DNA from: Candidatus Enterousia sp.
Lineage (GTDB): Bacteria; Pseudomonadota; Alphaproteobacteria; Rs-D84
DNA: 64,000 nucleotides
Assembly (NCBI GenBank): GCA_045587125.1
Contig: JAZNBN010000020.1
Span: 1,796 to 65,795 of the forward strand
Direction of reading: 5' to 3'
Part shown: positions 1 through 44,652 of the stretch, one piece after another
How the letters are laid out: each line of letters starts with the position of its first letter
How positions within the stretch are numbered: position 1 is the stretch's first letter
Translations under genes and position numbers: made by a program
Notes under the pieces: generated by a model
What the model was told of the DNA's origin: nothing
Seen by the model: the letters and a program-made list of their open reading frames with translations, nothing else
Databases searched by the model: none

Positions 1-1452
1 AATCCATTTAATGGCCGTGAAATTCCGGTCTTTATATCGGACTATGTATTGGCGGATTATGGGTTTGGTGCAATTATGGCTGTGCCGGCACATGACGGTC
101 GTGATTGGGATTTTGCAAAAAAATTCGGGTTGGATATTATTCCGGTCTTGGCCGGGGGTGAGCCTGATAAAGTATGGGAAGGCGACGGGTTGCATATAAA
201 TTCGTCTTTCTTGGACGGTATGAATAAAACAGACGCAATTGCCGCCGCAATTAAGTATGGTTCAGAACACGGTTTTGCGCGTGCAACAACAAAATATAAA
301 TTAAAAGATTGGGGTTTTTCACGCCAGATGTATTGGGGTGAACCAATCCCATTGGTGCATTGTGAAAAATGTGGTTGGGTGCCTGTGCCTGAATCTGAAT
401 TGCCATTGATGCAACCATATATGTCTGATTATCGCCCAACAGATGATGGCGAAGGTCCATTGGCCCGTGCCACAGATTGGGTAAATACAACATGTCCATG
501 TTGCGGGGCACCGGCAAAGCGTGAAACAGATACTATGCCACAATGGGCTGGGTCTTCGTGGTATTTCTTGCGTTATTTAGATGCACATAATAATGATGCG
601 TTTTGTAATCGTGACCAATTGGATAAATGGATGCCAATTGACCACTATAACGGCGGTATGGAACATACAACACGACATGTTTTGTATTCCAGATTCTGGT
701 ACAAGGTTTTACATGACCTGGGGTTTGTGTCGGGCGTGGAACCATATAAAAAACGTACCAGTAACGGTTTGATTATGGCGGCTGATGGCACAAAAATGTC
801 TAAATCACGTGGGAATACAGTGCCAAGTTCCGATGTCGTAGAACGCAGTGGTGCGGATGCATGCCGTATGGCTATATTATATCTGGGACCATGGGAACAA
901 AGTGCAAATTGGTCCGAAGATACTTTGCGTGGTATTGAACGCTTCTTGAAACGTGTGGAAAATTTGTCTGGTAATTTAACCGATGAACCAATGACACCAG
1001 CCCAGGAAAAATTACAACACCGTTTAATCGCAGATGTTACAGACAGATTGGAAAACATGAAGTTTAACACGGCAATTTCTGCAATGATGGAATATATAAA
1101 TGCGTTTGGTGGTTCTATGCCCCGCCCTGCGTATGAAACGTTGTTACAGATGCTGAATCCGTTTGCACCGCATTTGACCGAAGAAATGTGGGAAACATTA
1201 GGACATGCGGACATGATGGTGTTTGAACCATGGCCAACATTTGATTCTGATAAATTGGTGGACAGTGAAGTAACAATGGTTGTTTCAATTAATGGTAAAC
1301 GTACCGCAGAATTTGTTGCACCGGCAGATGCAGATGAAAATACTGTTGTTACCATGGCAAAACAAGCCGCAGGTGCAAAATTAAACGGTTCAGAAATTAT
1401 AAAAACAATCGTTGTGCCAAAGAAATTGGTGAATTTGGTTGTTAAAAAGTAA
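1..1452 (+). CDS. leuS: leucyl-tRNA synthetase, C-terminal part (5' end lies outside window)
   Basis: Frame of ORF 49..1452 is open back to nt 1. Translation has the class I KMSKS motif (GTKMSKSRGN) and LeuRS-like editing and anticodon-binding regions. Confidence 0.9.
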   Translation, partial: NPFNGREIPVFISDYVLADYGFGAIMAVPAHDGRDWDFAKKFGLDIIPVLAGGEPDKVWEGDGLHINSSFLDGMNKTDAIAAAIKYGSEHGFARATTKYKLKDWGFSRQMYWGEPIPLVHCEKCGWVPVPESELPLMQPYMSDYRPTDDGEGPLARATDWVNTTCPCCGAPAKRETDTMPQWAGSSWYFLRYLDAHNNDAFCNRDQLDKWMPIDHYNGGMEHTTRHVLYSRFWYKVLHDLGFVSGVEPYKKRTSNGLIMAADGTKMSKSRGNTVPSSDVVERSGADACRMAILYLGPWEQSANWSEDTLRGIERFLKRVENLSGNLTDEPMTPAQEKLQHRLIADVTDRLENMKFNTAISAMMEYINAFGGSMPRPAYETLLQMLNPFAPHLTEEMWETLGHADMMVFEPWPTFDSDKLVDSEVTMVVSINGKRTAEFVAPADADENTVVTMAKQAAGAKLNGSEIIKTIVVPKKLVNLVVKK

Positions 1453-1486
1453 TAAAAAATCCCGCATTTGCGGGATTTTTTATTTT
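1453..1486. terminator. bidirectional rho-independent terminator between leuS (+) and bamD (-)
   Basis: Hairpin ATCCCGCAtttGCGGGAT flanked by A-run and T-run. Confidence 0.6.
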
Positions 1487-9378: not shown

Positions 9379-10509
9379 ATGAAAATCTTTATCATTGCCG
9401 GCGAGGTTTCTGGTGATGTTTTAGGTGGACGTATTATGTCCGAAATGCCAGATGCTGAATTTGTTGGTATTGGCGGCGAAAATATGCAGTCCACAGGATT
9501 GAAAACCCTGTTCCCAATGTCTGATTTGTCTGTTATGGGTATATTAGAGGTTGTTGCACATGCAAAGACACTAACAAAACGTATTAAACAGACTGTGAAT
9601 GCGATTTTAGAAGAAAAGCCAGATATAATTTTAACGATTGATTCCCCTGGTTTCGCCAAAAGTGTTATAAAACAGATTAAAAAATCAGAATCGGGTAAAA
9701 AACTGATAAAACAAGGTTTGCGTTTTCATCATGTTGTTGCCCCCCAGGTTTGGGCATGGCGGTCAGGACGTGCAAAAAAATATGCACGTACGTTTGATAA
9801 ACTGTATGCGTTTTTTGATTTTGAAGTGCCCTATTTTACTAAATATGGATTGGATACGGTTGCGGTTGGTCATCCAATTGCAGATGGTATAATTGGCAGG
9901 TTCAAGGCGACCACAAATGAAGATGCGGAAAAAATAATAACATTGGTCCCAGGCAGCCGTATGTCAGAGGTAAAACGTTTGTTGCCGTTGATGCGTGATG
10001 TTATTGATATGATGTATCGTAATGGATATATGGGGTACAAATTTGTAATTCCTGTGGTGGAAACTACGGCGGAATATATTGCTGGGGAAATAAAAAATTG
10101 GCCTGTTAAGCCAATGTTGGTGCCCGCAAATCAGCGTTACGATGTTTATTCCAAAACCTATGTCGCAATTGTGGCCAGTGGAACTGTGTCCGCTGAGTTA
10201 GCAATGATGCATGTGCCAACGATTGTTGTTTACAAGATGAATCCGATAACAACATGGATTGGGCGTAGATTGATAAAAGTAAAATGGGTTTCTTTGGTAA
10301 ATATTTTATTAAATCGTGGTGTTTATCCTGAATTTTTGGGTGGTGATGCCGTGCCGGAAAAGGTTATGAACGAATTACAATTATTAACTATACCATCTAA
10401 GCGTCAGAAAATGATTGCAGATTTAGAATCTGCAGATATTCTTTGGCAAAAAGATAGTGGTGGTGCAGGCAAGAAAATCGCAATGGAAATACAAAAAATG
10501 CTTAGATAA
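9379..10509 (+). CDS. lpxB: lipid-A-disaccharide synthase
   Basis: N-terminus MKIFIIAGEVSGD and GT19-family pattern throughout. Start chosen at the internal ATG of ORF 9325..10509, which overlaps lpxA by a few nt. Confidence 0.85.
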   Translation: MKIFIIAGEVSGDVLGGRIMSEMPDAEFVGIGGENMQSTGLKTLFPMSDLSVMGILEVVAHAKTLTKRIKQTVNAILEEKPDIILTIDSPGFAKSVIKQIKKSESGKKLIKQGLRFHHVVAPQVWAWRSGRAKKYARTFDKLYAFFDFEVPYFTKYGLDTVAVGHPIADGIIGRFKATTNEDAEKIITLVPGSRMSEVKRLLPLMRDVIDMMYRNGYMGYKFVIPVVETTAEYIAGEIKNWPVKPMLVPANQRYDVYSKTYVAIVASGTVSAELAMMHVPTIVVYKMNPITTWIGRRLIKVKWVSLVNILLNRGVYPEFLGGDAVPEKVMNELQLLTIPSKRQKMIADLESADILWQKDSGGAGKKIAMEIQKMLR

Positions 10510-10528
10510 AAAATCTAAGCATTTTTAA

Positions 10529-12973
10529 TTATTCATCTGTTTTGGTATATATCCCTTGGGGCAATAATGGTGCGGATAATATGGCCTTTTCTGATGTTAA
10601 GCATTTGCCCTTTTTGGTATTGTCCATGAAAATACATACCTGGTTTTCATCAGAAAATCCAATCGCGTCTTTCCATTTTGTATCATAATATATGGTTTCG
10701 CATTTTGTAGATTTACCATTTTGACTGCGACGTGCACCATTTTCCCAACATGAACACATGCCCCATGATTCAATATCTACAGACAGTCCATAATCACGTG
10801 GACACATGTTTTCGTTTGTCTTATCATCTGACTGGAATATGCCATATGTACTGATGATTTCTTTATGTTCATTTTTGGTACTTACTGTATAGATACATTT
10901 ATTATCTGGGTTATAATTGCCAGATATAAATTGTGGTTCAATAAAACGACCCTGCAGGTTATTACATTGTGTTGATAATACAGACAGGATTTGATTATAT
11001 ATTTCTGTTGCAATACCTGTTGGACGTAGGTAACGTTGGTTGAATGATAATGATGTATCGTCATTTAAAATACCGTATTTAAGTTGACCTGTTGAGTTGT
11101 AACTTAAACTGTCACCGGTACCCGAGACAGGGACTTTGTCAAGACCACCAAACGTCTGTTCTATTATATCCTTGCATGCTTCTATATTGTCTAATTGTTT
11201 CGCACATGGAGAAGTAATATTTTTTATTTGTTGTCCGGATTCTTCTGTGTATGTGTACAATGTGAACCAATCTGGGGCATTGCCAGGCAGGAAAAGTCCA
11301 CTGTATGGGTAATAAAAATTCTCGTAATTGGTACCGCCGTATTTATCAAAGCATTGTTGTGCAACCGCACGGCATGCGGTTAAATTATCAGTTTCCGTTT
11401 GGGTGTTAATGTATTCTGCGATGATGTCGCCAGCAAACAGATTGTTGCAAGAATCTACATAATCTGTGCACATTTGTGTACTAAGTTTTATTTGTTCTGG
11501 TTTGATAACAATGTTATTATTACCCGTCAAAGTAGCCATTGCGTTTGTTATGGCTTTGTTACTGTTTATATAGCAATTGGATACAAAGTCAAAACATCCC
11601 TGTTTAATTTCGGCAACTTTATCTTTTTGTGCGTAATATATATCCAACATCGCTTTGTCCAGATATTCAGCCCATACATAATCTGCATTTTCTGTACACT
11701 TATCCAATGCGGGTTCTGCAAACTTTTTAACACGACTTTCAAAATTAGAAACGAATGTTCTGTTGCCACTGATTTTAGATAGTTGTTGATTTTGTAAATC
11801 TTTATCGGTACTGAATGTTAACAATTTTTCCAGATTGTAAAAATCTTTGACACCTGCGATTGGGGCACCGGTTGTTATATCTATGTATTCGCCATTGTCA
11901 AGACATCTGTGATAATTTGCACCACAGACTTCTTCACTAAGTATTGCCATTTCAACTTCGTTTATACACGTTGTTATATCAGAAGAGTTATGTTTTTTTC
12001 TGTTTTCTACACGTGCTAAATCCAACATGGCACTGCCCTCGCGGATGGCGGATTTTAATTGTTTTTGTGTCGTTTCAATTGCAGTTTGAACCGTGTTGCA
12101 ATCTTGTTCAACCGCCATCAGATATGCAGTAATGGCACGTTGTAATGATGCGTCGCTGCAGACATCTTTGACCGCCTGACGACATTGTGGGTATACCGCT
12201 TGATATAATGCCTGGCCATTATATGTTGCGATTACTTGACCGGAATCCGTCATCCCAAATGCATTCGCGGTATCAAAAGATATATTTATACTGTTTAAAT
12301 CAGAATATTTACCGCCAACATTTGTGTCTTCGCCACGTATGGAATTCATGATTGCCTGTAATAACGCCTTGGATGCGGATTTATCAGATGTTAACGCGGC
12401 TTCGCCTTCGGATTCTTGACGCATTGCAGATGCCTGGGCATATGTCATGCCGACAACTTCCAGATTTTCATTGAACGCTTGTAATTGGGTATTTGCATCC
12501 TGTAAAGTATCGCGCATTTTTATCATGTCAAATACGCGATCGTTACAAGAGCAACGACGATAATCGTCATTTTTTAACGTGCAAAATTGATCCATACATG
12601 TAAAATACGCGGTTTTGCATTGTTCATATGCGGCACCTGTTTTTGTTGTTGGTGTTGTATTGTCGGTTGTTGCACGTGCCTTGATTTTTTGTTGTGTTTG
12701 ATTTTGTTTTATTGCACTGCGTTCATTTATGTTTCGGTTGGGTTGTTTTTTATTGATTGCACGAACATTGGTTTCCGGCCCAATGGATGCACTGCGTGGT
12801 GTTAATATCGTTGCGTTTCTGGATGAAACAGATGTGCGTTTTTGCACAGAAGATACGCGGCTTTGTTGTTGTGGTTTTGCGGTTCTGGATAATGCGTTGC
12901 CATCACGGACCGCTGCATCGGCAATGCCGATACAGAACAAGAAATTCGCAATATAAACAAGAATTTTCTTCAT
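10529..12973 (-). CDS. secreted cysteine-rich protein, paralogue A of a lineage-specific ~810-aa family (CMDQFC...YRRC core)
   Basis: Signal peptide MKKILVYIANFLFCIGIADA, then a basic Ser/Thr/Asn-rich low-complexity segment, then a ~650-aa Cys-rich domain. Alignable by eye along its length with the 44653..47091 product. Confidence 0.7.
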   Translation of the reverse strand: MKKILVYIANFLFCIGIADAAVRDGNALSRTAKPQQQSRVSSVQKRTSVSSRNATILTPRSASIGPETNVRAINKKQPNRNINERSAIKQNQTQQKIKARATTDNTTPTTKTGAAYEQCKTAYFTCMDQFCTLKNDDYRRCSCNDRVFDMIKMRDTLQDANTQLQAFNENLEVVGMTYAQASAMRQESEGEAALTSDKSASKALLQAIMNSIRGEDTNVGGKYSDLNSINISFDTANAFGMTDSGQVIATYNGQALYQAVYPQCRQAVKDVCSDASLQRAITAYLMAVEQDCNTVQTAIETTQKQLKSAIREGSAMLDLARVENRKKHNSSDITTCINEVEMAILSEEVCGANYHRCLDNGEYIDITTGAPIAGVKDFYNLEKLLTFSTDKDLQNQQLSKISGNRTFVSNFESRVKKFAEPALDKCTENADYVWAEYLDKAMLDIYYAQKDKVAEIKQGCFDFVSNCYINSNKAITNAMATLTGNNNIVIKPEQIKLSTQMCTDYVDSCNNLFAGDIIAEYINTQTETDNLTACRAVAQQCFDKYGGTNYENFYYPYSGLFLPGNAPDWFTLYTYTEESGQQIKNITSPCAKQLDNIEACKDIIEQTFGGLDKVPVSGTGDSLSYNSTGQLKYGILNDDTSLSFNQRYLRPTGIATEIYNQILSVLSTQCNNLQGRFIEPQFISGNYNPDNKCIYTVSTKNEHKEIISTYGIFQSDDKTNENMCPRDYGLSVDIESWGMCSCWENGARRSQNGKSTKCETIYYDTKWKDAIGFSDENQVCIFMDNTKKGKCLTSEKAILSAPLLPQGIYTKTDE

Positions 12974-13108
12974 CTCTGGGTTAATCTTAGCAAAATTGTA
13001 AAATACGGTGCAAGTGAATAATAGGGTTAAAAAATAAAATTTATATGCATAAATAAATTTTTCTTGTTGCAATTATGTTGAAATTGGGTTATATTTCTTT
13101 GGCTTTAT

Positions 13109-13195
13109 GGGCATATGGCGGAATTGGTAGACGCGCTAGTTTCAGGTACTAGTGGTAGCGATACCTTGGAAGTTCGAGTCTTCTTATGCCCACCA
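13109..13195 (+). tRNA. tRNA-Leu (anticodon CAG)
   Basis: Cloverleaf with acceptor GGGCATA/TATGCCC, long variable arm, anticodon loop TTCAGGT, T-loop GTTCGAGTC, encoded CCA. Confidence 0.8.
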
Positions 13196-13205
13196 GAAGT
13201 TTTTT

Positions 13206-13281
13206 GGGGTTGTAGCTCAGCTGATAGAGCGCTACGTTCGCATCGTAGAGGTCGTGGGTTTGAGTCCCATCAGCTCCACCA
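13206..13281 (+). tRNA. tRNA-Ala (anticodon CGC)
   Basis: GGGGTTGTAGCTCAGC...; G3:U70 Ala identity pair; anticodon loop TTCGCAT; T-loop TTTGAGT; encoded CCA. Confidence 0.8.
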
Positions 13282-13301
13282 ATTTTGATAAAAAAGTCTT
13301 C

Positions 13302-13388
13302 GGGGATATGGCGGAATGGTAGACGCTGAGGACTTAAAATCCTTTGGTCATTGCGACCGTGTGGGTTCGAGTCCCACTATCCCCACCA
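13302..13388 (+). tRNA. tRNA-Leu (anticodon TAA)
   Basis: GGGGATATGGCGGAATGGTAGACGC..., long variable arm, anticodon loop CTTAAAA, T-loop GTTCGAGTC, encoded CCA. Confidence 0.8.
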
Positions 13389-13392
13389 GAAA

Positions 13393-13421
13393 TTAAAAAT
13401 GCCCGAATGGGCATTTTTTTA
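13393..13421. terminator. bidirectional rho-independent terminator after the tRNA cluster
   Basis: Hairpin ATGCCCGaatGGGCAT followed by T-run. Confidence 0.6.
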
Positions 13422-14546
13422 CTTGGTATGTTTCATATGTTGTTGCATAACCATTTTTTTGATTTTTGGATTCAGTTCATATACGCCACTTTTTTCCAAG
13501 AATTCAAACAGGTAATCGCGTCTTAGGTATAAGGTGATTTTTGGACCGCGTCTTTTATATTCAATCGCACCCGCAGGTAATTTAGATTGCATTTCTTTAA
13601 ACAATTGTGGCATTTGGCGAACATGGGTATGAAACATTTCTTCTATTTCACGTGCAGCAATCCAATTTTTATCGTCTTTGGTGTCGTATATATACAGACC
13701 TGTTATTGCACAAAAATCGTTCATGTATTCTTGATTCAGGCACAGGTGTGTTTTTGGACCGCTTTTTCTGAATTCAATTGCACCATTGGGCATTTGACTG
13801 CGCAGTTCGTGCAACATTGTTGGCAGATTGTTTAGTCTACGCTTTGTTTTTTGTCGGATTTCTTTGGCAGACAGCCAATTGTTATCTTTTTTTGGGATGG
13901 TTTGCAGTTTCGCAGCGGTTACAAAATCTTGAAGATAATCTTTGTGTAGGTATATTGTTGTAACTTTACCGCAAAGTCTTTTTTGTAATATAGATTTTGG
14001 TAATGTACCCTGGGTATACAAATCATTTAATATAGATGGTATTTTGTCATGTCTTATATGTAATTGTTGGGCGATTTCATGACTGTTTAGCCATTCTGGC
14101 GTTTTTAGAATTGATTTTTGTATTCCGGCGATTTCACAAAACATATCCAAGAAGTCTTTGTGTAAAACAAGTATATATTTGTTTGTATGTTTTTGTAATT
14201 GAATTGCACCTGGGGGCATTGTATGTTGGTATTGTGTTAATAATCCATATATTTGGCTGTGGTGTGAATGTAATATGTGGGCAATGTTCGTTGCGGTTAA
14301 GTAATTAGAATCAGCGGTAAAAGATTTTGATATTTGTGCCAGTTTGCAAAATTGTGGCAAATATTTGCGTTTCAGAATTAATATGCGGGGACCACAACGT
14401 CCAATCGGAGACAGTGTTGTTGCGTCCGGTGGTAACATGTCTTTGAAATGGCGTAATTTATCACGTACAGTGCGTGCACGGATGTTGAACATTTTTGATA
14501 TTGTATCAGGAAAAATGAAAGTATCATTGTTTTCCATGTTTTTCAT
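13419..14546 (-). CDS. protein built of five tandem ~65-aa excisionase/MerR-like (HTH_17-like) repeats; putative DNA-binding protein
   Basis: Five repeats with spacing W(L/I)xAxEI...LPxGAI(E/Q)xxKxGPKxxLxLxx(D/E)Y(L/M)xDF. The repeat tail resembles excisionase-type HTH (LPAxKIGxRWRIxxxDLxxFL). The ORF extends to 14567 with a TTG start; the ATG at 14546 is more plausible. Confidence 0.6.
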   Translation of the reverse strand: MKNMENNDTFIFPDTISKMFNIRARTVRDKLRHFKDMLPPDATTLSPIGRCGPRILILKRKYLPQFCKLAQISKSFTADSNYLTATNIAHILHSHHSQIYGLLTQYQHTMPPGAIQLQKHTNKYILVLHKDFLDMFCEIAGIQKSILKTPEWLNSHEIAQQLHIRHDKIPSILNDLYTQGTLPKSILQKRLCGKVTTIYLHKDYLQDFVTAAKLQTIPKKDNNWLSAKEIRQKTKRRLNNLPTMLHELRSQMPNGAIEFRKSGPKTHLCLNQEYMNDFCAITGLYIYDTKDDKNWIAAREIEEMFHTHVRQMPQLFKEMQSKLPAGAIEYKRRGPKITLYLRRDYLFEFLEKSGVYELNPKIKKMVMQQHMKHTK

Positions 14547-14560
14547 GTTTAGTCCTTTTG

Positions 14561-14595
14561 TTGACAAATTATAATGTAAAACTATCGTTTGTCAA
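14561..14595 (-). promoter_or_regulatory. consensus sigma70-type promoter (TTGACA-N16-TATAAT, minus strand) bracketed by an 8-bp inverted repeat TTGACAAA...TTTGTCAA
   Basis: Minus-strand read TTGACAAACGATAGTTTTACATTATAATTTGTCAA lies just upstream of the start of the HTH-repeat gene. The inverted repeat spans -35 through +1. Confidence 0.5.
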
Positions 14596-15475: not shown

Positions 15476-17140
15476 TTATTGGGGGTTGGTTGACCATGGT
15501 ATATCGTTCATAATCAGATAATATAATTCCGCATTATCTTGGCCTGGGTTACGTAATACGGGGCGTACAACAAATATATCGACATTACATGGTGTGTTTG
15601 TATTATCTTGGACTTCGGTTAAATCCTCATAAAACTTAGCAGCAAAATCCATGACTTGCAGATATGCGGCGTCGTCGTCGGTTGCATTGGTTGAATTGCC
15701 CATCCACATTAGCCACATACCATAATTTATGGTATCTTCTTGGCCAGCAATATCGTCTGCGGACAGCAATAACAAAGGCTTAAAATCGACACCACTGGTA
15801 AATTCGTCGGTACTGGTTTCTGTAAAGTCCCAAAACAGACCGCCAATTGTGCCCAATGCACCAAATGCCAGACTGCCTATGGTTTCTAATTTTGCCAATG
15901 CACCTGCATTTCTTAGTGTAGAATGAAACAGGTAATCACGAATTTGACCGGACAGTTTACTGCTGCGTCCCAGTTTGGCCGCTTTGTTTATTAATTTATT
16001 TCCTGAAAATGCTGCTTTGACACCCTTGCCTACACGTACAGTGCGTGCAAATATGTTTCCACGTTGTGCGATTTTGTGTAACGAGTTTACGCCACGCAGT
16101 TCATGTCTATATTTGTTTAATTCAGAATATGTTTTACTGGCTTCTTTATATTTTTTTACATCATCACTGTTTTCCAGTGTTTTTAATGTATCGTTTATTT
16201 TATTCAGTTCACGTTGTTTGTCTGCGATTTTTGCTGCGTCTTTTACTTTATCTAATGTTTTTATTTCATCGGCTAATTTAGCAGCTTGTCCGGATATCTT
16301 TATGTGATCACGGACAGCGTCAACGTTACGAAGTTGTTTTAATGTGGTTCGTAGACCTTTTAATGCACGTGCGGCACGTGGCGCCTTGGTGGCCCCCAAT
16401 ACAACTGTGCCAGTCCCAGCTGTTAATACAGTGATGGCGACATCCAGTGCTATTTCTGCATATCCAACCCATTCCAGGTTTTTATTGCCTGCAACGTAGT
16501 AATCGTTGGAATCATCTTTGATACTGACTGTTTGTATCATTGCACGATTTATTGCGTCTCCGTCACCTGTCCAGGCAGTTTCACTGGTGCAACTTAGACC
16601 ACGCGGATAAAAACTGTCGAAATTATCATTTATATATTTCATTGAAATTGTGTTGTTTTTATCAGGACCAACAAATTCATCCAGTGTGCCTGATTCAACA
16701 ACCATAATACCGTACCATGCAGGATCTGTATTTGTCCAAACAGTATCGCCATCTTCACCAATTTTTGGGTTGGGGTCACTGGACGGCAGACTTCGTTTTT
16801 GTCCCAATGTCAGCCGTTGTTTTAGAATTTTTGGTTGTGTTTCGTAATTTACAATTATTTCACGACCACCTGGGAAAGTGTATTTTATTGGTGCGAATTT
16901 AATTGTTTCTGTTTCCGGAACAGATGATATTTCTGGACAATTTAAAACCGATGATAAAACTTTGTGATTGTAAAAAGTTTTATATATCCATTCTTTGATT
17001 ACGTCTGGTTCGTCTTGTTCGGTAACTGTGTCGGCTGTTTGTGCCAAAGCGTTCGCAAAAATCTGTGAGGCACAAGGTGTGGCATTTGCGTTTGTAAATA
17101 TCATCAGAAAAAAAACAAAAAATATTAAATTTTTTTTCAT
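15476..17140 (-). CDS. secreted protein with central coiled-coil and glycine-zipper-like hydrophobic segments, unknown function
   Basis: Signal peptide MKKNLIFFVFFLMIFTNANA. Segments AITVLTAGTGTVVLGATKA and SLAFGALGTIGGLFW. Lys-rich coiled-coil. Confidence 0.6.
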   Translation of the reverse strand: MKKNLIFFVFFLMIFTNANATPCASQIFANALAQTADTVTEQDEPDVIKEWIYKTFYNHKVLSSVLNCPEISSVPETETIKFAPIKYTFPGGREIIVNYETQPKILKQRLTLGQKRSLPSSDPNPKIGEDGDTVWTNTDPAWYGIMVVESGTLDEFVGPDKNNTISMKYINDNFDSFYPRGLSCTSETAWTGDGDAINRAMIQTVSIKDDSNDYYVAGNKNLEWVGYAEIALDVAITVLTAGTGTVVLGATKAPRAARALKGLRTTLKQLRNVDAVRDHIKISGQAAKLADEIKTLDKVKDAAKIADKQRELNKINDTLKTLENSDDVKKYKEASKTYSELNKYRHELRGVNSLHKIAQRGNIFARTVRVGKGVKAAFSGNKLINKAAKLGRSSKLSGQIRDYLFHSTLRNAGALAKLETIGSLAFGALGTIGGLFWDFTETSTDEFTSGVDFKPLLLLSADDIAGQEDTINYGMWLMWMGNSTNATDDDAAYLQVMDFAAKFYEDLTEVQDNTNTPCNVDIFVVRPVLRNPGQDNAELYYLIMNDIPWSTNPQ

Positions 17141-18480
17141 TGTATTAAACTGTCGCATTGTTGTTGCAAAATAGTTATTTCATTTTGAATGCGTTGTATT
17201 AATGCAGGGTATGGGTCGTTTGGAACAGAACTGTCCCCGTTTATTAGACGCCAATTATAGCAAAAATTTTGTGTGTCTGGGATATATTCCACATATGCAT
17301 TTGCAGGTGGTTCACCGTTACAATATCTGGTGACGCATTCTGGCGCCCATGCATCATCTTTCCATAATCCATCCCACCATGATGCAGGTTTGTCCGAACC
17401 ACCCTGTAAACATTGACGAACCCCCGGACGTTTTACAGTCATTTTGCCATCTGATGATTCAACACCACAAAACATATATTCACCTATTTGTGCCTGGCGT
17501 TGACCCTTGTTAAAGGCGGTATTACAACATGTAAATAGACCAGTTTCTGGATCGTGCAAACAATCTGTTTCCGAGAATAATTGTGAACCTGCGATTACTG
17601 TACCAAGGACTGTGCCAACAATTGCACCAACACCATTACCAATTACAGGTACAGCGGTACCAATTGCCATACCTGTTGTTAAACCGCCAACTGCACCTGC
17701 AAAAAGATTGCCTACGCTGTGTTTGTCTTTGCCTGTGACGGTAGAGGCAACAGTCAAAACGCCCCCAACCCCTGCAACAGCTGTACCAACTTTTGCGGCT
17801 GTACTCATACCTTTCCAACCCTGGGGTGTAGTGTTTGCAGGTGCCTGATTAGTTGATTGGTTTGTGCCAGCACCTGTTTGAGTTGCAGCTTGATTCGTAC
17901 CTGCGCCCGTTTGAGTCGCTGCTTGATTTGTACCTGCACCCGTTTGAGTCGCTGCTTGATTCGTACCAGCACCTGTTTGAGTCGCTGCTTGATTCGTACC
18001 TGCGCCAGTATTTGTCCCATTTGGTGGTGTTGCTGATGACGGTGTTGTTCCACTTGGAAATGCTGTGCCGGATGTCGTAACATTAGGAGTTGTTGGTGTT
18101 GGCGCAGATGTTGTGGCAAATTGATTCGTACCTGCGCCAGTATTTGTACCATTTGGTGGTGTTGCTGATGACGTTGTTGTCCAACTTGGAAATGCTGTGC
18201 CGGATGTCGTAACATTAGGAGTTGTTGATGTTGGCGCAGATGTTGTGGCAAATGGTGTAATTGGAATTGGTGTAGAAGTTGGTGGCATATTTCTGATGTG
18301 GTCTGGCATTCCTGTGGTGCTAACGAATTGACCATTTACTGCGTTACGAAATCTGTTGTCTGGTGTTCTTATCAGTTGTACATCTGGATCATTCCATGCG
18401 GCACATAATGCGCTGTTTGTTGTCATCGCAACAAAACAAGAAAGCGCAATATTAAAAAGAAGATATTTTTTGTGTATCAT
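17137..18480 (-). CDS. secreted Thr/Pro-rich repeat protein with Gly-rich hydrophobic region and Cys-rich C-terminal domain
   Basis: Signal peptide. Tandem peptide repeats (QAATQTGAGTN x5 and a ~43-aa unit x2). GxxxG-rich segment AVGGLTTGMAIGTAVPVIGNGVGAIVGTVLG. C-terminal domain with about 10 Cys. Overlaps flanking genes by 4 nt. Confidence 0.6.
   Translation of the reverse strand: MIHKKYLLFNIALSCFVAMTTNSALCAAWNDPDVQLIRTPDNRFRNAVNGQFVSTTGMPDHIRNMPPTSTPIPITPFATTSAPTSTTPNVTTSGTAFPSWTTTSSATPPNGTNTGAGTNQFATTSAPTPTTPNVTTSGTAFPSGTTPSSATPPNGTNTGAGTNQAATQTGAGTNQAATQTGAGTNQAATQTGAGTNQAATQTGAGTNQSTNQAPANTTPQGWKGMSTAAKVGTAVAGVGGVLTVASTVTGKDKHSVGNLFAGAVGGLTTGMAIGTAVPVIGNGVGAIVGTVLGTVIAGSQLFSETDCLHDPETGLFTCCNTAFNKGQRQAQIGEYMFCGVESSDGKMTVKRPGVRQCLQGGSDKPASWWDGLWKDDAWAPECVTRYCNGEPPANAYVEYIPDTQNFCYNWRLINGDSSVPNDPYPALIQRIQNEITILQQQCDSLIQ
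17861..18250. repeat. nested in-frame tandem DNA repeats (about 33 bp x5 followed by about 130 bp x2) inside the Thr/Pro-rich gene
   Basis: Direct repeats visible in the sequence (e.g. cctgtttgagtcgctgcttgattcgtacctgcgcc recurring). The second block is duplicated nearly identically at about 17998 and 18128. Confidence 0.75.
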
Positions 18481-19367
18481 AAATATGTTCCCTTTAATTT
18501 GCATTTTGATAATTCAATATTTTGTTGCTGACATTGTTGCAGTGTTTTCAAATCTTCAACCAATATTTGATATTTTGCATTGGAATTTGTGCAATAAGCA
18601 TTTTTTTGTTGTTCAACTCGCTTGCGACGTGTAAGAAATTCTTCCTCTGATTCTATTTCAATTTCTGTGTATGCACGACTGTCTTTATATGGTTCATAGC
18701 CCTTGGTTTCGTTTGCGATGCGTTCCGCAAATGACAAATCTGCGTATGTGGCTGGAAAACTGGCACGTTGCAGGCCAACGTTGTTTGCACCATTTTGGTT
18801 TTGTAATGATTCCAGTTCGTTTTTGCGTTCCTGCATTTCTTTGGCCCATTCAGGAACATTTGGGGCAAATGGATTTGGAATGTTTATTCCCGAATCGTAT
18901 GCGTTCGGATTTGGTGCGGTTGCATTTGGAAAAGCAACATGCCCAGACGGACCAGATGTTGTATAGTTTGCCTTGTATTGTTCAAATGCACTGTCCAAAT
19001 ATCCAGAACATGACGATATATAATTGCCATCAGATATTCGTGACAGTTGTAATAACACAGCAGGTCTAATGTCGTTTAATGTGGTGCTGGCACAATTGTT
19101 TAACAGTGCACACTGGGAAATAATTAAATTATAAACGATTGTTTGACAATCTTCTGAATCAATCTTGGGACCAGTGGCGTATACAGGTTGTGGCATACGC
19201 ATGTTGTATGGCCCATTTGGATCGTATCCAGGTTGGGTCGAATATTTTTGTACGTTTTGAATAACGCCGTATTGTGAAAATGGTGATGGAGATGAGGCAC
19301 GTGACGAATATGTGCAAAAAATGCAACCTGTCAATAATGCTAAAATACTGGGGTTATTCACTCTCAT
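18477..19367 (-). CDS. lipoprotein, unknown function
   Basis: Signal peptide with lipobox LLTGC. Ser/Pro-rich linker. Acidic coiled C-terminus. Confidence 0.55.
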   Translation of the reverse strand: MRVNNPSILALLTGCIFCTYSSRASSPSPFSQYGVIQNVQKYSTQPGYDPNGPYNMRMPQPVYATGPKIDSEDCQTIVYNLIISQCALLNNCASTTLNDIRPAVLLQLSRISDGNYISSCSGYLDSAFEQYKANYTTSGPSGHVAFPNATAPNPNAYDSGINIPNPFAPNVPEWAKEMQERKNELESLQNQNGANNVGLQRASFPATYADLSFAERIANETKGYEPYKDSRAYTEIEIESEEEFLTRRKRVEQQKNAYCTNSNAKYQILVEDLKTLQQCQQQNIELSKCKLKGTYL

Positions 19368-19398: not shown

Positions 19399-19869
19399 TT
19401 ATAACAAAAATATGTTTGTAATCAAAGATAAAAATCCCCCAAATAAAAAGAAAGGTGCAAATGGAATAAATTTTTGCCTTTTTATGTTTGCCCAAATTGC
19501 ACCTGTGATACATGCAATGATCAATGCGGTTGCCATGCCGGTTATCCCCAACCAAATGCCACCTACCCCCATTAATTTTATGTCACCCATGCCAATTGGA
19601 GATTCTGAATTTGGATTTTTTTTGCGTAAAATAATGTCAAATATAAAACCGATTAAAACGGACATTGTGTACCCAAATATTGCGCCAATAACCGCGTCTG
19701 TAATTGGAATTGGAAATGCGTAAAATGTAGTTAATGTCAGACCGCACAGCATCAGTGGAAATAAATATGCATCTGGAATAATTCTGCGGCGAAAATCAGC
19801 AATTGAAATCAAAACAGAACATAATATGGCCAATATTAATAAAAATATAAAAAATATGTATGAAATCAT
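19399..19869 (-). CDS. A24-family prepilin peptidase, short CpaA/TadV type (no methyltransferase domain)
   Basis: 156 aa polytopic protein with the two catalytic Asp contexts (ADFRRRIIPD and GMGDIKLMG). Confidence 0.7.
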   Translation of the reverse strand: MISYIFFIFLLILAILCSVLISIADFRRRIIPDAYLFPLMLCGLTLTTFYAFPIPITDAVIGAIFGYTMSVLIGFIFDIILRKKNPNSESPIGMGDIKLMGVGGIWLGITGMATALIIACITGAIWANIKRQKFIPFAPFFLFGGFLSLITNIFLL

Positions 19870-20609: not shown

Positions 20610-22859
20610 ATGCAAAACGAGAGAGAAAATATTTTTCAGCCACTGACCGCGATTGATTATGATATCGCAGGTAATTCTTTTCGGGCGTATTATGATTCGG
20701 ATAATAAACTGGTTTTTGTTATTGATTTCGTAACCAATGCCATTAAGCCTAATGTTTTGTTGGTTATAAATCCTGATGGTGACAGAAAGTGGGACGATAT
20801 TTTAATGAACGATTACGGGGTTGATTTAGAAACCGTTCGTCCAAAGCAAGACAATAAATATCAAAAGTTGGATATAGAGTATACCGGTTTGTCTGTTTAT
20901 GATAATTTAATTCAGGTCTATAATAATGGTGATGATATATCAGACGAAATTTCGTATTTAGATGCATTTCATCATGATGCGGCGTATCGTGCCGCCCAAG
21001 AACGCTTTGAAGCCGCAGAAATGACGGCGGACCGTACCCGTGAAACAATTGACAGAACGATGGGGGTTATTGCAGAGTTGCAGGCACGTTTAAAAGTTCT
21101 GCGTTCCAAATTGGCTTTGCAACGTAAATCTATTGGTAAAGAACCAACCAAGAAATCTGCGTCCAAGATTTTGCGTACTGAATCACAAATAGACGCAACA
21201 AATGAAAAACTGATGCGTGCAAAAAAACGTCTGACAAATGCAAAACGCAGGTTGGTCGTTGCCGAAGAGGATTCAGAGGTTGCACGTTCAATACTAAATA
21301 AATTAGGTGGTGTTTCAGAATTGCCTGCAAAACCGTTAAACACAGCGGTCGCGGTGAAACAAAACCCACCTGTCCCGGTAAAAAAACAAGATATCGAATA
21401 TACAGATACAACAATAGAGGCTGAAAAAATGGCTGATAATAACGAAGAAGTAAAACCTTTATTTGATACAGATCCTGAAATCATAGATGAAGATATTGCT
21501 TTTAAACCAATCGATTTTGGTTCAGGGTCAGATAGTAATGATGACGAATATCAAACAAATGTTCAAGTCGAAGAACAGCCCACGGTATCTTTTGAACCTA
21601 TCCCTGGGATTCCAGATGTGCCAAGTGCGGTTGAAACACCTGCGATTCAGCCTGTGGAATTTACACCACCGACCAGTTTTGAATCGTTTGAACCTTCTGA
21701 AAATACAGGAAATGAATATGGTATGCCTGGGGCATTTACCCCTGCCCCGATTGTGGAAGAAAATACTAATGAATATGAAACGTTGACTGGCTGGGGTGAT
21801 GACAATGCTGTCGTGCCAGATGTGAACACTTCATTTGGTAACACAGTAACATCGGAAACTTTGGCCGAAGAATTCCAAATGCCGATTACACCTGCACCGG
21901 TTGCCCCTGTGACACCTGTGGTTGATAATGAAAAAACTTTTTCAGAAATAGAACCTGCACCGGTGGATTCTGGTATGCGTCCCGTTTCCCCAATAACACC
22001 AGATGTTCCAGTTGCACCGTCTGATACAGATACGAATATAACAATTCAACGGTCCAGACCTTCGTTTGTTTACTATATTTTATTGATTTTATTGATTGGG
22101 TTGTCTGTATTTACTTTGTGGATGTATCAAAAATCTACAAATGGCAATTTGCCTGAATTGGGTGCGAAAACTCAGGTTGAAGAAACCATAACAGAACCTG
22201 TTGTGGCAGAACCAGAAGTACAGATTGTTGAACCTGTTGTGGCAGAACCTGTGGTTGTAGAACCGGAATACGTTGAACCAGAACCGGTTATAGAAGAACC
22301 AGTTGTGGAACCAGAACCCGTCATAGAAGAACCGGTCGTTGAACCAGAACCTGTTACAGAAGAACCAGTTGTGGAACCAGAACCAGAATTTGTGCCAGAT
22401 ACAACATCTGCATCTGTTATAAAGTCTTTGCGTTATACCGAAGAAGTGCCAGAACCTGTTGTTTTGGAAACGGAAGAAGAAATATTGGCTAAAAAGCCTG
22501 CGTATGGTGTTTCGCAAAACGAACAAATGTTTGTTTCAGAATATGAATCTGATGCAGATATGAATACAGAAATGGATTTTGTTGCATATGATACAGGTGT
22601 TATTACATATGATGAACCATCGGTTGTTACAACAACAACGTATGAATCAGAAGAAATTATTGCATACAATGAACCTGATGTTTATGCGGACGATGTTTTT
22701 GTAGAAGAAGTTGTAGAAGAAGATATTGAAATGTGTGCAGATGGCGGTTACCCAAGTCCAGAAGGTTGTTGTGCAGGGGAAGTTTATACGCATGTTGGAA
22801 ACGGCGAATATGTATGTTGTGTTCAATCAACAGGTGAATGTTTCCCGCCAATGCGTTAA
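20610..22859 (+). CDS. acidic coiled-coil/repeat protein with one transmembrane segment and a Cys-rich C-terminus, unknown function
   Basis: 749 aa. TM segment FVYYILLILLIGLSVFTLWMY. (EPVVEPEPV[IT]E)n repeats. C-terminal CADGGYPSPEGCCAGE...CCVQSTGEC. Confidence 0.55.
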   Translation: MQNERENIFQPLTAIDYDIAGNSFRAYYDSDNKLVFVIDFVTNAIKPNVLLVINPDGDRKWDDILMNDYGVDLETVRPKQDNKYQKLDIEYTGLSVYDNLIQVYNNGDDISDEISYLDAFHHDAAYRAAQERFEAAEMTADRTRETIDRTMGVIAELQARLKVLRSKLALQRKSIGKEPTKKSASKILRTESQIDATNEKLMRAKKRLTNAKRRLVVAEEDSEVARSILNKLGGVSELPAKPLNTAVAVKQNPPVPVKKQDIEYTDTTIEAEKMADNNEEVKPLFDTDPEIIDEDIAFKPIDFGSGSDSNDDEYQTNVQVEEQPTVSFEPIPGIPDVPSAVETPAIQPVEFTPPTSFESFEPSENTGNEYGMPGAFTPAPIVEENTNEYETLTGWGDDNAVVPDVNTSFGNTVTSETLAEEFQMPITPAPVAPVTPVVDNEKTFSEIEPAPVDSGMRPVSPITPDVPVAPSDTDTNITIQRSRPSFVYYILLILLIGLSVFTLWMYQKSTNGNLPELGAKTQVEETITEPVVAEPEVQIVEPVVAEPVVVEPEYVEPEPVIEEPVVEPEPVIEEPVVEPEPVTEEPVVEPEPEFVPDTTSASVIKSLRYTEEVPEPVVLETEEEILAKKPAYGVSQNEQMFVSEYESDADMNTEMDFVAYDTGVITYDEPSVVTTTTYESEEIIAYNEPDVYADDVFVEEVVEEDIEMCADGGYPSPEGCCAGEVYTHVGNGEYVCCVQSTGECFPPMR
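22193..22400. repeat. in-frame tandem repeats of about 30 bp encoding EPVVEPEPVIE units
   Basis: Repeated gaaccagttgtggaaccagaaccc... units visible in the sequence. Confidence 0.6.
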
Positions 22860-22878: not shown

Positions 22879-25227
22879 ATGAGAGTGATATTAAGTTTTT
22901 TTGCTGTGTTGTTGTTCATGTCTTTTGATATGGGGGCGTATGCTGCCCTTAATGCATCGGGAAATAGCAGTTCACCTGCATGTGCGGGTAAAGATAAAGC
23001 GGTTACATTAACGGATCGTTGCCCCAGTGTTCCACAGTTGAAATTGCTTGGGAATCAATCTTTAAAAGATAACGAATTTTTATACGCTAGTTACAGTACA
23101 TACGAATCTTTGCAAAAAGAATATAATAAAAGACCTGCGGCGTGCAGAACATATTTTAGTACCAATCAAGCCAATGGTGTTTATGAGTGTGATAAAGATT
23201 ATTGTGGCAGATATACTGTATTGATAATGGATAAAAATCACGGTTTTAATGGAAAGACAGTGGCTGATAAACGTGCATATATATGTGATACTAATGTTGA
23301 TGATAGATGGATTCCATATTCACATAACATATCTGAATGCACAAAAGGTCAGATGGATACAAAGTCTTATACAAAAATCAAGGGACTGGACGGTTTACAA
23401 TACAGATATAAAAAAGATGCTACAAGAATTACTTCTATATGTCAGGTTCCTCAGGATAAATCAAATGTTCAACAAACAGGCGATAATACGGTATCTAAAA
23501 CCGGTACTCAGGGGGCGACACGTTCGGAAACAAAACCAGATGGTGAAACAACAGAAGATAAAACGCCCAAAAAAAATACGGTAGAGAAACCACAACCAGA
23601 ACAATCAACAAATAAAACACAACATGAAAATGTGGGTGATGAAAAAATTGGTCAGCCTTGTACGACAGAAAATGCAAAAAAGGCTGTTTGGCAAAAAATT
23701 GATAAAGAAATCAAATGTGTTGCCAAAGAATGTAATCAGGACAGATATTTGGTTGTGAATAGTAAAGGTGAATCTCAAGGGTACTGTATTGCGAATACTT
23801 GCAAGGCACCAAAAACATTAAATATTATTGACGGAACAAAAACTGATAAAAGGTGCGTTGACCCCGCTGCATCGGAAATTGCAGAAGAAACAATCGAAGA
23901 AGATGTTGAAGAAGAATTACCAACTGTGCCATTCAGACCAGATTTACAAATTAACCAGCCATGTGCACAAGGTTTTTTGACGATATTAAACGCAAAGACC
24001 GGTAAATATGCTAAGCATGCAGGTTCTGATGATATTTATTGTGATATAACAGAATGTAATGAAAATTTTGTGAAAGTATCACGAAATCAAGGTGAAACGT
24101 ATGATGATTATAATGGAGTGAATTTGTACGAAATATGTGAATGTCCTAGTGAAACTCATACTATAAATAATGAAGGTAAATGTGTTGCAAATACGAATGG
24201 TGTGCCTGCAACGGATAGAACACCTGCTGAAGCTAATGTTAGTATAACAGTACAAGGCACGATTAACGATAGCGCAGGTAATTGTCTTGCGAATGCAGAG
24301 ATTGTATTTCCAGATGGTGCATATATAAATCAAGAGGGTTGTAACTTTACTGTTGGATTACAAGAATCTGGCGAAATTACTTTTTCATTTGATGGTTATG
24401 AATCTGTATCCAAGAGTTATAGTGAAAGTGTATATAATGAAATAATTGTTTTGACAAAGTCTGCAACAGATGTTGCGGTTGATGAAGGTAACGAAGCAGT
24501 TGTGCCAGATGAAGGTTTAGAAGAACAGGATAAAGAACCAATTGATAAAGAAGACGATAAAATCCAAGAATTACGTGATAAAGCTGATGCGGCACATGAA
24601 CGCGAAAATTCAATGGCGAATAAAATGTTGGGTGCGGCCGGTATCGGTGCGACCGGTATTGGTGGAATGATGCTGATGCAGGGATTGTCTGAACAAAAGG
24701 CGGATAACAATGCCCAGGAACAAATGCGCGCATATTTGTCCACATTTATGTGCAGATTTGGTGATGGCCGTGCCACGGGCGGTGAATCTGATATTGAATT
24801 GCCGGGTGCAAACGCATTATTACCACTTTATGCCGAATATGTAACATTGGCAAATGAAACCAAGGCTATGAAGACAGAACTGGATTTAAAACCAGGTATA
24901 GAATCTGAAAGTATCTTGGATAACGCAACATCTGGTTTGTATGATGATGAAAATACTGGCAAAACATCTGGTGCATTTGCTTCATTGGCACGTGCATTAC
25001 AAAACCCAGATGGCGAAGATGCGAAAAAATGGGCCGAACAAACTGAAAAAGCATCTAAGAACATAAAAACAGGTGCGATTACTGCGGGTGCCGGTGCGGT
25101 TGGCGGATTGGTTGGTCATATTACTGAAAGTGCGGTTTATAAAAAGAAGGCTGAAAAAGGTAATGAAGATTCAGACGATGAATCTGAAGATAAAAAATAT
25201 AAACCTAAAAAACGTGGAAGAAGTTAA
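22879..25227 (+). CDS. secreted cysteine-rich protein (782 aa) with C-terminal Gly-zipper hydrophobic segment and Lys/Glu-rich tail
   Basis: Signal peptide MRVILSFFAVLLFMSFDMGAYA. About 50 Cys. Segment MLGAAGIGATGIGGMMLMQGL. No recognisable enzymatic motif. Confidence 0.55.
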   Translation: MRVILSFFAVLLFMSFDMGAYAALNASGNSSSPACAGKDKAVTLTDRCPSVPQLKLLGNQSLKDNEFLYASYSTYESLQKEYNKRPAACRTYFSTNQANGVYECDKDYCGRYTVLIMDKNHGFNGKTVADKRAYICDTNVDDRWIPYSHNISECTKGQMDTKSYTKIKGLDGLQYRYKKDATRITSICQVPQDKSNVQQTGDNTVSKTGTQGATRSETKPDGETTEDKTPKKNTVEKPQPEQSTNKTQHENVGDEKIGQPCTTENAKKAVWQKIDKEIKCVAKECNQDRYLVVNSKGESQGYCIANTCKAPKTLNIIDGTKTDKRCVDPAASEIAEETIEEDVEEELPTVPFRPDLQINQPCAQGFLTILNAKTGKYAKHAGSDDIYCDITECNENFVKVSRNQGETYDDYNGVNLYEICECPSETHTINNEGKCVANTNGVPATDRTPAEANVSITVQGTINDSAGNCLANAEIVFPDGAYINQEGCNFTVGLQESGEITFSFDGYESVSKSYSESVYNEIIVLTKSATDVAVDEGNEAVVPDEGLEEQDKEPIDKEDDKIQELRDKADAAHERENSMANKMLGAAGIGATGIGGMMLMQGLSEQKADNNAQEQMRAYLSTFMCRFGDGRATGGESDIELPGANALLPLYAEYVTLANETKAMKTELDLKPGIESESILDNATSGLYDDENTGKTSGAFASLARALQNPDGEDAKKWAEQTEKASKNIKTGAITAGAGAVGGLVGHITESAVYKKKAEKGNEDSDDESEDKKYKPKKRGRS

Positions 25228-27659: not shown

Positions 27660-27740
27660 AGTTTCTTTCCTATTGTGTTTTTTAGATTTGCCCGATGATT
27701 ATACAACGTTTTATAATGAAAGCAATAATAAAAAATCCCC

Positions 27741-27914
27741 ATCGTGGGGATTTTTTTTGTTTTCCAAACGATATTAACGTTTGGAAATTCCGTTTCCGTG
27801 CGTACCGCACGCCCGGAATGACAAATTGCACCGTTATTATGATAACGTTGCAATAAAAAATCGCCCCAAAAGGACGATTTTTTCGTTTCCCAAACGATAT
27901 TAACGTTTGGAAAA
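27741..27914. repeat. two direct copies of a composite element (terminator-like hairpin plus palindrome TTCCAAACG-N7-CGTTTGGAA), with a further hairpin between them
   Basis: Copy 1 is about 27741..27789 (aaaaaatccccatcgtggggattttttttgttttccaaacgatattaacgtttggaaa). Copy 2 is about 27855..27914 (aaaaaatcgccccaaaaggacgattttttcgtttcccaaacgatattaacgtttggaaa). Intervening palindrome ATTCCGtttcCGTGCGtacCGCACGccCGGAAT. Confidence 0.7.
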
Positions 27915-43253: not shown

Positions 43254-43254
43254 C

Positions 43255-44100: not shown

Positions 44101-44144
44101 CCGAATGTATGCGATTTTTGTAGTGTTTAACCAAAGGAAAGGCT

Positions 44145-44585
44145 GTGTTTATGTTTTTTAAAAGAAAAAATAAGTTAAAACATGCGGTTATAGATGCAGA
44201 TAATGCGAAAAAAGTCAATCCATTGGATTTGTCGGCAGACCAAGATTTGACAATTGCTATTATGAATTTAATTAAATTAGAAAAATTATTAGATGGTGTT
44301 GATACGTCTGGCGGGTACGATATGTGTGGTGCAATTCGTGATATGCGGCATCGTTTGATGGGGCGTGTTGTATCCGATACAGACGGTGATTTATGGAATA
44401 TGTCGTTGTATTTACTGGGGTTGGCAACTGATTTTATGGAACGCGGATTTATGACAACTGGTGCGTCGGCGTACGAAATGTTTGATAAATCGTACGAGGT
44501 TTATTCTTTGTTTTGGGGACTGAATATGGGGCTGATAACGGTTTCAGATGTGGCCCAGGATATTGAAAAACAAAAAAACATATAA
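44145..44585 (+). CDS. hypothetical protein (146 aa)
   Basis: ORF with plausible spacing to neighbours; no motif recognised. Confidence 0.4.
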   Translation: MFMFFKRKNKLKHAVIDADNAKKVNPLDLSADQDLTIAIMNLIKLEKLLDGVDTSGGYDMCGAIRDMRHRLMGRVVSDTDGDLWNMSLYLLGLATDFMERGFMTTGASAYEMFDKSYEVYSLFWGLNMGLITVSDVAQDIEKQKNI

Positions 44586-44652
44586 CGTGTAAAATTTGCT
44601 ATTGCGTTGCATGGGTAAAAAATGATAAAATGCAAAAAAGAGAGAAAGAAAA

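Follow-up and report, generated by a model that had tools for sequence, protein, structure and literature searches.

A protein with a comparable architecture is the Cys-rich envelope protein OmcB of Chlamydia (PFAM: Chlam_OMP6 / DUF11 repeats), which carries a signal peptide, a basic N-terminal segment that acts as a heparin-binding adhesin motif and a large domain with many Cys, and which comes from a Gram-negative bacterium that depends on a host and has a reduced genome. Other systems that come close are the helical disulfide-rich adhesins of parasites (the DBL/EBL domains and the reticulocyte-binding proteins of Plasmodium), the cassette-type polymorphic loci of CdiA-CT/CdiI, Rhs and phage receptor-binding proteins, which couple a conserved proximal region with a distal one that recombines and with a downstream gene that varies along with it, and the twin-Cx9C / CHCH helix-hairpin proteins of the mitochondrial intermembrane space, which have Cys pairs at fixed spacing on one face of a helix, presumably stapling neighboring helices. 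Here we analyze two genes, copies A and B, that code for Cys-rich proteins with predicted signal peptides and lie on a stretch of 64,000 nucleotides of a Candidatus Enterousia sp. contig (GenBank JAZNBN010000020.1, positions 1,796 to 65,795; 'the window' hereafter). In sequence and in fold these proteins represent a new family, while their design (anchor, stalk and variable head) resembles that of known modular surface proteins.

The comparison with the described systems brings out both likeness and difference. A and B share with OmcB the signal peptide, the basic N-terminal segment, the large domain with many Cys and the kind of source organism, but lack a Chlam_OMP6 sequence match (PFAM and NCBIfam, E <= 1) and are predicted to consist mainly of helices plus a new alpha/beta head, where OmcB has beta-sandwich repeats; OmcB is an analog rather than a homolog. 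No match to the Plasmodium Duffy-binding-like (DBL/EBL) domain was obtained by sequence or by structure. The likeness to CdiA and Rhs, a conserved N-terminal and a variable C-terminal part, was found for B only and not for A; moreover, B has no toxin, immunity or tail-fiber domain, no junction motif and no viral-contig match, and its partner, the product of the downstream gene that we call dnCys, is a large secreted Cys-rich protein, unlike that of CdiA-CT. The CHCH proteins, finally, differ in spacing (x9 or x3, against x6 in A and B), and A and B are large, multi-helix, bacterial and unrelated in sequence.

A and B are diverged paralogs

The preliminary description of this DNA proposed two open reading frames (ORFs) of around 810 amino acids (aa), each coding for a Sec-type signal, a basic low-complexity tract and a Cys-rich domain. 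Both ORFs were recovered as described (Table 1), and hydropathy, isoelectric point (pI) and Cys counts agree with that layout. The GTG start of B is backed by the conserved N-termini (MKGLF...) of its orthologs, and the protein P0121 is 100% identical to B from Met17 on. For A, an ortholog (P0001) was found that is 96% identical and has the same synteny. An exact-match look-up of A, B and P0121 in the contig collection returned no record.

In a computed pairwise alignment (BLASTP), A 39-514 and B 95-562 are collinear and share 30% of the residues across 492 columns, with an E-value of 2e-63. In a MAFFT alignment of A, B and 240 homologs, 23 Cys columns are common to the two proteins and 16 Cys are invariant in both groups, namely (A numbering) those at positions 119, 126, 131, 141, 143, 264, 272, 292, 336, 350, 357, 426, 460, 467, 502 and 509. 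The similarity ends around A 560 / B 615. The two were earlier said to align along most of their length, which holds up to this point but not for the final 250-300 aa, where no BLAST alignment was obtained and hhalign aligned only 29 columns with a probability of 22%. The shared sequence blocks quoted at that time are all present, except that A reads TCINEV where ECI was written. The comparison shows A and B, on the strength of the alignments, to be genuine and diverged paralogs. Among the ORFs of 120 aa or more in the window, a BLAST search recovered none besides A and B that is related to either of them. Three further genes for secreted Cys-rich proteins (22879..25227, 47120..48541 and 60798..62165) were considered as remote family members and rejected, as the profile comparison with A and B was negative.

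Distribution and paralog groups of the family

A word-indexed database search yielded 924 (A) and 1222 (B) protein clusters, and the named ones were all 'hypothetical protein' from metagenome-assembled genomes (MAGs) of Alphaproteobacteria, none with a PFAM domain. When 1.84 billion representatives at 50% identity were searched exhaustively with a HMMER profile, 902 proteins matched with E <= 1e-3, and 428 of them reached E <= 1e-30. Within the GTDB species genomes at least 592 loci were recovered, the best 80 of which stem from Candidatus Enterousia or Alphaproteobacteria MAGs from animal and human guts and include complete chromosomes of 716,531 and 958,618 bp. No relatives were found in viral contigs. 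As far as these searches show, the family is confined to the reduced-genome gut Alphaproteobacteria of the order Rs-D84 (Candidatus Enterousia); the presumed lineage-specificity thus applies to the order and not to the source genome. Rs-D84 / Candidatus Enterousia is widespread in the guts of humans, rodents, poultry and ruminants, and Enterousia is reported to have genomes below 1 Mb, no respiratory chain and most of biosynthesis missing; an obligately partner-dependent lifestyle, metabolically reliant on other cells, has been proposed (PMC12306168). The family described here is not mentioned in the published Enterousia genome analyses (PMC12306168).

Three groups can be told apart among the representatives: A; B, which has a divergent fringe; and C, with proteins of 930-1180 aa and 38-44 Cys. 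At least three old paralog groups therefore exist where two paralogs had been assumed. Members of different groups occur together: A and B in one MAG (locus tags K2L95_01825 and K2L95_02440, respectively), B and C in one MAG (J6K82_03795 and J6K82_03945, respectively), and A and B on a single contig in L013, L019, L027, L033 and L001/L086. The divergent members retain the signal, the tract and the stalk described below, and their C-termini are longer, repeat-rich and Cys-bearing.

That no characterized family could be assigned was confirmed by sequence, profile and PDB structure searches. Neither A nor B had a match in PFAM or NCBIfam at E <= 1, and there was no significant match in PHROGs or PADLOC, among PDB sequences (phmmer and profile) or, for the full A model, in Foldseek (best E 0.89); the statement that the fold is new holds for the PDB only. 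A type V autotransporter barrel was not matched in PFAM either, and the C-terminal domain of A is modeled as a compact alpha/beta domain with short strands.

Cysteine numbers and disulfide bonding

The number of Cys in the mature protein is even in 351 of the 358 homologs analyzed (119 of 120 in the A group, 119 of 120 in B and 113 of 118 in C), although the A group spans 26 to 46 Cys and the C group 38 to 44. Even counts over such a wide range imply that Cys have been gained and lost in pairs. A bias towards even Cys numbers is said to have been put forward by Dutton and co-workers in 2008 as a mark of exported disulfide-bonded proteins, and an even mature count across homologs is what we found here. 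The parity shows that the mature Cys form disulfides, which implies folding in an oxidizing compartment.

The Cys are in part regularly arranged, with five C-x6-C motifs in A and four in B. The stalk of A holds four of its five C-x6-C motifs and the sole C-x7-C motif, and the fifth C-x6-C (534/541) lies in the head segment. In the structure model of A the pairs 119/126, 460/467, 502/509 and 534/541 are on helices, so that each of these pairs should lie on one helix face; C-x6-C 350/357 and C-x7-C 264/272 are only partly helical.

Modular architecture

Signal peptides of Sec/signal peptidase I type are predicted for both proteins, with cleavage read between MKKILVYIANFLFCIGIADA and AV in A and between ...VGVGNLYA and AQA in B. 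The A signal peptide, which is conserved in the orthologs, has a 19-residue Kyte-Doolittle mean of 2.14. The signal peptides are the sole hydrophobic segments of A and B, since the maximal 19-residue hydropathy past residue 40 is only 0.75 and 0.97, respectively. An extracytoplasmic location, as suggested before, is thus supported indirectly, by the signal-like N-termini, the lack of another hydrophobic segment and the even mature Cys counts, and from the N-termini we infer export via Sec. The Cys in the A signal peptide was also considered as part of a lipoprotein signal, but this reading was dropped because the sequence (FLFC / LLVC, followed by IGIADA and cleavage before Ala) does not conform to the canonical lipobox L-[ASTVI]-[GAS]-C; the real lipoproteins encoded in the window, BamD and RlpA, use LMGC and LAGC, respectively.

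The signal peptide is followed by a polycationic disordered tract. Across the 358 homologs the tract contains 12-13% Arg, around 47% Thr/Ser/Ala and 3-4% Asp plus Glu. The spacing between successive Arg is non-random in the A, B and C groups, with a strong depletion at 1-3 residues and a peak at 4-9. The consensus around each Arg of the homologs is (V/T)-x-(S/A/P)-R-(T/S)-(A/G)-T, a motif that recurs in A, and the B tract has repeated xxR(S/G)A(T/V) motifs. The sequence of the tract drifts, while composition and spacing are kept across all groups. Charge is partitioned, the tract having a pI of 12 and the folded parts one of 4.1-4.8.

The folded parts were examined in an AlphaFold2 model of A 100-814, which was built from 127 sequences and has a mean predicted local distance difference test score (pLDDT) of 78.8. 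The N-terminal two thirds of the model consist of long helices, two of them 54 residues long, and we refer to this region, which is homologous between A and B, as the stalk. The C-terminal 286 aa of A, the head, when modeled alone form an alpha/beta domain with a pLDDT of 94.3 and a predicted template modeling score of 0.90. Together, these data show proteins made of three modules: a disordered tract that is cationic, a helical stalk that is conserved and a head that is particular to each group.

Purifying selection on A and mosaic variation of B

Divergence was measured against a close relative (ENA scaffold_8; L001 and L086). Housekeeping and flanking genes of the two strains show synonymous divergence (dS) of 0.05-0.17, with LpxA lowest, and 95-99% aa identity; for the genes that flank B, dS is 0.12-0.17. 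For A, the protein is 96% identical, the DNA is uniformly 90-98% identical, and the ratio of nonsynonymous to synonymous divergence (dN/dS) is 0.06 overall and 0.02 in the stalk. Across distant orthologs of A the N-terminal stalk is 78-98%, the head 48-95% and the tract 30-91% identical, with a graded and congruent divergence and a conservation order of stalk, head and tract. These figures show that A is under strong purifying selection. The earlier argument that retention of the paralogs implies importance is supported to the extent that A has this low dN/dS and that each group is conserved over hundreds of species.

B behaves differently. Relative to the same strain its tract is 94%, its stalk 86% and its head 47% identical, and in the head dN is 0.50 and dS 1.66. 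The adjacent dnCys is affected likewise (34-39% identical to its counterpart, dS 1.44). Within the sharply bounded block formed by the distal part of B and dnCys nucleotide identity is 24-79%, as against 90-99% ahead of the drop and 93-99% in the flanking DNA, and dS is around 10 times that of the flanking genes. On the 3' side identity jumps back to 97-99% at the terminator that follows dnCys. Divergence climbs gradually from around codon 400 of B and does not start at a junction. Among ten B proteins from conspecific strains, stalk residues 158-400 are 96-100% identical, while their heads make up three or more classes with 33-50% identity between classes; between strains with such near-identical stalks, head identity is 35-45%. 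The head of the B protein of the window is closest (66%) to heads from a lineage whose stalk is only 70-73% identical, and the head alleles are incongruent with the stalk phylogeny. Judging from these sequence comparisons, the distal module of B is replaced by recombination together with dnCys. Silent cassettes for the B head were not found within the window.

The pairing of B and dnCys is kept in L013, L019, L033 and L086. The gap between the two genes has no noted terminator-like hairpin, one follows dnCys, and from this layout dnCys is probably co-transcribed with B. dnCys has no PFAM match; it contains a stretch that resembles an epidermal growth factor domain (CKEGYYGESC).

Proposed function and alternative explanations

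We propose that A and B are surface-displayed binding proteins with tract and stalk proximal and head distal, a tentative reading to which we assign a probability of roughly 45%. In this scheme each protein would be exported via Sec with removal of the signal peptide, after which all 28-30 mature Cys of A and B would be oxidized to disulfides. The product would consist of a disordered polycationic tract of 90-130 aa with evenly spaced Arg, an acidic helical stalk with disulfide staples between the heptad-spaced C-x6-C pairs, and a paralog-specific alpha/beta Cys-rich head without a known fold in the PDB. The most likely location is the exterior of the cell envelope. There the cationic tract and the stalk would fasten the protein to the envelope, which is anionic, and the outward-facing head would serve to bind a partner cell or a host surface. 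The conserved head of A would then fit an invariant ligand or a core role, and the head of B, which is exchanged between strains along with dnCys, would be what one expects of an exposed specificity or antigenic determinant. We arrive at this reading because of the conservation gradient, the hypervariable recombining head, the repeat-rich Cys-bearing C-termini of divergent members and the inferred dependence of the organism on other cells; Sec export, surface location, binding and the role of the cationic tract are proposed from sequence and models. The host-facing function that had been suggested is likewise a proposal: the hypervariable, recombining distal half of B speaks for contact with something that varies, and in place of the animal host this may be a different microbe, a phage or the immune system of the host.

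Several observations weigh against surface display. A Sec substrate of a diderm goes to the periplasm by default, and no beta-barrel, canonical lipobox or transmembrane segment was found in A or B, nor was a secretion system recognized beside either gene or elsewhere in the window. The head of A is not hypervariable. The stalk model is of moderate quality only (pLDDT 50-90), and A residues 185-242 (11900..12420), which are 84-87% conserved among A orthologs, have a pLDDT below 50; this segment may be an interaction surface or may fold on binding. Dsb or thioredoxin-like genes were not recognized in the 64-kb window, and oxidation via DsbB and quinone is not an obvious route because the respiratory chain is reported to be absent (PMC12306168).

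Some of these points would be accommodated by a structural scaffold in the periplasm or outer envelope, in which the tract binds peptidoglycan, phospholipid or inner-core lipopolysaccharide (LPS) and the stapled helices stiffen the envelope of a small-genome cell, in function like the Cys-rich envelope proteins of Chlamydia. The Sec-type signal in the absence of any outer-membrane export feature, the high conservation of A, the location of A next to lpxB-lpxA in 59 of 83 loci and the position of the C-group paralog, divergent to a cluster with a Pom-type porin and OmpA in two distant genomes, are all in line with such a role. It is nevertheless rather unlikely in our view, as a hypervariable, recombining B head with a partner gene is hard to reconcile with a purely internal function and long repeat-rich Cys-bearing C-termini, as found in the divergent members, are typical of exposed proteins. 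Moreover, the porin beside the C-group paralog has only 2-3 Cys, another difference from the OmcB system, and because it is so poor in Cys a Chlamydia-like disulfide network with porin is not supported. The same variability of B could be explained by a polymorphic toxin, with the B C-terminus as effector and dnCys as its cognate neutralizer or partner in the way of CdiA-CT/CdiI or Rhs, given that a conserved N-terminal part, a variable C-terminal part and a variable next gene are all included in one replacement block with sharp bounds. Considering that there is no PFAM toxin domain or PADLOC match, that A and B lack a VENN or PxxxxDPxGL junction motif, that divergence in B is gradual, that the dnCys product with its 473 aa, signal peptide and 24 Cys is unlike the small immunity proteins, that A has a conserved head and no such partner, and that no delivery-system domains were found, we regard this explanation as improbable.

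The long helices of the N-terminal domain, and the presence of NheA and MakA in the Foldseek list, could also point to a secreted pore-former built of alpha-helices, such as the toxins ClyA, Nhe and MakA. These matches, however, had E-values of 4.9-6.6 and probabilities of at most 0.06, so that the ClyA/Hbl/Nhe/MakA fold is not recognized; a hydrophobic hairpin is missing, hydropathy after the signal staying below 1.0, and dense disulfide stapling would oppose the large refolding that is required, which makes a pore-former very improbable. Still less credit is due to a metal-binding or redox protein in which the Cys serve as ligands or in active sites. A high Cys content and invariant positions would be expected of it, but A and B do not contain a single CxxC motif or match a metal-cluster family (PFAM and NCBIfam), and Cys counts that are nearly always even and move in steps of two, as well as heptad-spaced Cys pairs on helices, are better explained by disulfides.

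Genomic context

The features of the two loci are listed in Table 1. The tRNA cluster lies around 135 bp upstream of A and is 100% identical in the close relative. From this arrangement A appears to be monocistronic. In seven loci the A-type copy adjoins iPGM instead of lpxB-lpxA, and in three of these it is also beside dnCys. On the other side of the tRNAs, the gene 13419..14567 (-) codes for a fast-evolving protein of 382 aa with repeated helix-turn-helix-like modules and weak DUF5997 and DnaD_N matches, 70% identical and with a dN/dS of 0.37 relative to the close relative.

Table 1. Position of the main features in the window (strand as + or -; a dot marks a feature on both strands).
Feature	Position	Strand	Remarks
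Copy A gene, complete	10529..12973	-	ATG at 12973; 814 aa + stop; 29 Cys
A signal peptide, residues 1-20	12914..12973	-	MKKILVYIANFLFCIGIADA, AxA cleavage motif; sequence reading, hydropathy
A polycationic disordered tract, residues 21-113 (93 aa)	12635..12913	-	pI 12.0, net charge +14, no Cys
A helical Cys domain (stalk), residues 114-528	11390..12634	-	homology with B; 16 invariant Cys; AlphaFold helices
A alpha/beta Cys-rich C-terminal domain (head), residues 529-814	10532..11389	-	
Bidirectional terminator-like hairpin between convergent lpxB and A	10494..10526	.	14-bp stem, T runs on both strands
Short region upstream of A, putative promoter (inferred)	12974..13108	-	sequence reading; tRNA cluster at boundary
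tRNA-Leu(CAG), tRNA-Ala(CGC), tRNA-Leu(TAA) cluster	13109..13388	+	between A and upstream gene
Copy B gene, complete	44653..47091	+	GTG start; 812 aa + stop; 31 Cys
B signal peptide, residues 1-26	44653..44730	+	sequence reading, hydropathy; conserved in orthologs
B polycationic disordered tract, residues 27-157 (131 aa)	44731..45123	+	pI 12.0, net charge +18, no Cys
B helical Cys domain (stalk), residues 158-575	45124..46377	+	homologous to A
B C-terminal head, residues 576-812	46378..47088	+	hypervariable
dnCys, secreted Cys-rich gene 3' of B	47120..48541	+	473 aa, 24 Cys; 28-bp gap after B
Hyperdivergent block, B from ~codon 400 and whole dnCys	45850..48550	+	sliding-window nucleotide identity vs L086
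Recurring hairpin copies	1445..1485, 27727..27787, 27852..27913, 48540..48573, 56655..56694		

B is preceded (43237..44653) by rsmH and a 146-aa orphan gene, an order that is kept in other Enterousia loci and in distant genomes; rsmH, which normally starts the division and cell wall (dcw) cluster, is not followed here by ftsL or ftsI. The C-group genes (L084 8001..11531 and L087 8001..10883) are divergent to the Pom-type porin / DUF3078 / OmpA cluster. In L087 the C gene is directly followed by a gene for a secreted protein of 383 aa with 31 Cys, and in L084 one of 407 aa with 27 Cys is encoded in the cluster neighboring the C gene. The window itself contains genes for BamD, MurJ, RlpA, LpxA and LpxB, which indicates an ordinary diderm envelope with peptidoglycan and LPS.

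A bidirectional terminator-like hairpin, AAAAAATCCCC-N4-GGGGATTTTTT, recurs at gene ends in the window, and one of its copies coincides with the abrupt 3' end of the hypervariable block that contains B and dnCys. A second hypervariable block was observed at 17000..18700, with 30-50% nucleotide identity to the close relative and many gaps. The genes around it are orphans for secreted proteins, lined up downstream of 19399..19869, a short gene that resembles a prepilin peptidase (Peptidase_A24). The block includes an ORF (17137..18504, -) for a secreted orphan of 455 aa with 132-bp tandem repeats (17846..18253). Two adjacent large orphans that are conserved in the close relative follow gcrA (20610..22859 and 22879..25227, both +); the former codes for 749 aa with 6 Cys and the latter for 782 aa with 23 Cys, led by a signal peptide, and neither has a PFAM match or a BLAST match to A or B. 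Finally, 60798..62165 (-) codes for a secreted protein of 455 aa and 20 Cys with sub-threshold matches to DUF7631, Ephrin_rec_like and the Listeria-Bacteroides repeat; a DUF7631-like Cys repeat is also found in the long C-terminus of the divergent family member P0323.

Implications

Three conserved family genes of 2.4-3.5 kb make up roughly 1% of a genome smaller than 1 Mb. Given such a share of a reduced genome, A, B and C are prime candidates for mediating contact with the partner. For its identification, the A head, which is conserved, and the B head, which is swapped as a cassette, provide concrete baits. The confident model of the A head, without a neighbor in the PDB, makes this domain a candidate new fold. 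How an anaerobe for which no quinone-linked oxidant is known produces exported, fully disulfide-bonded proteins is a testable question on oxidative folding. Taken at its widest, and this we consider doubtful, the family might be the means by which an ultra-small Alphaproteobacterium attaches to a partner on which it obligately depends, and constitute a new class of adhesins with a disulfide-stapled helical stalk and a new head fold; the B head and dnCys would then form a recombining cassette that sets which partner or surface is bound, and the disulfides of this anaerobe, whose respiratory chain is reported to be absent, would be formed by an unrecognized pathway of oxidative folding. While not a surprise of principle, the family offers a testable handle on the lifestyle of a widespread gut lineage.

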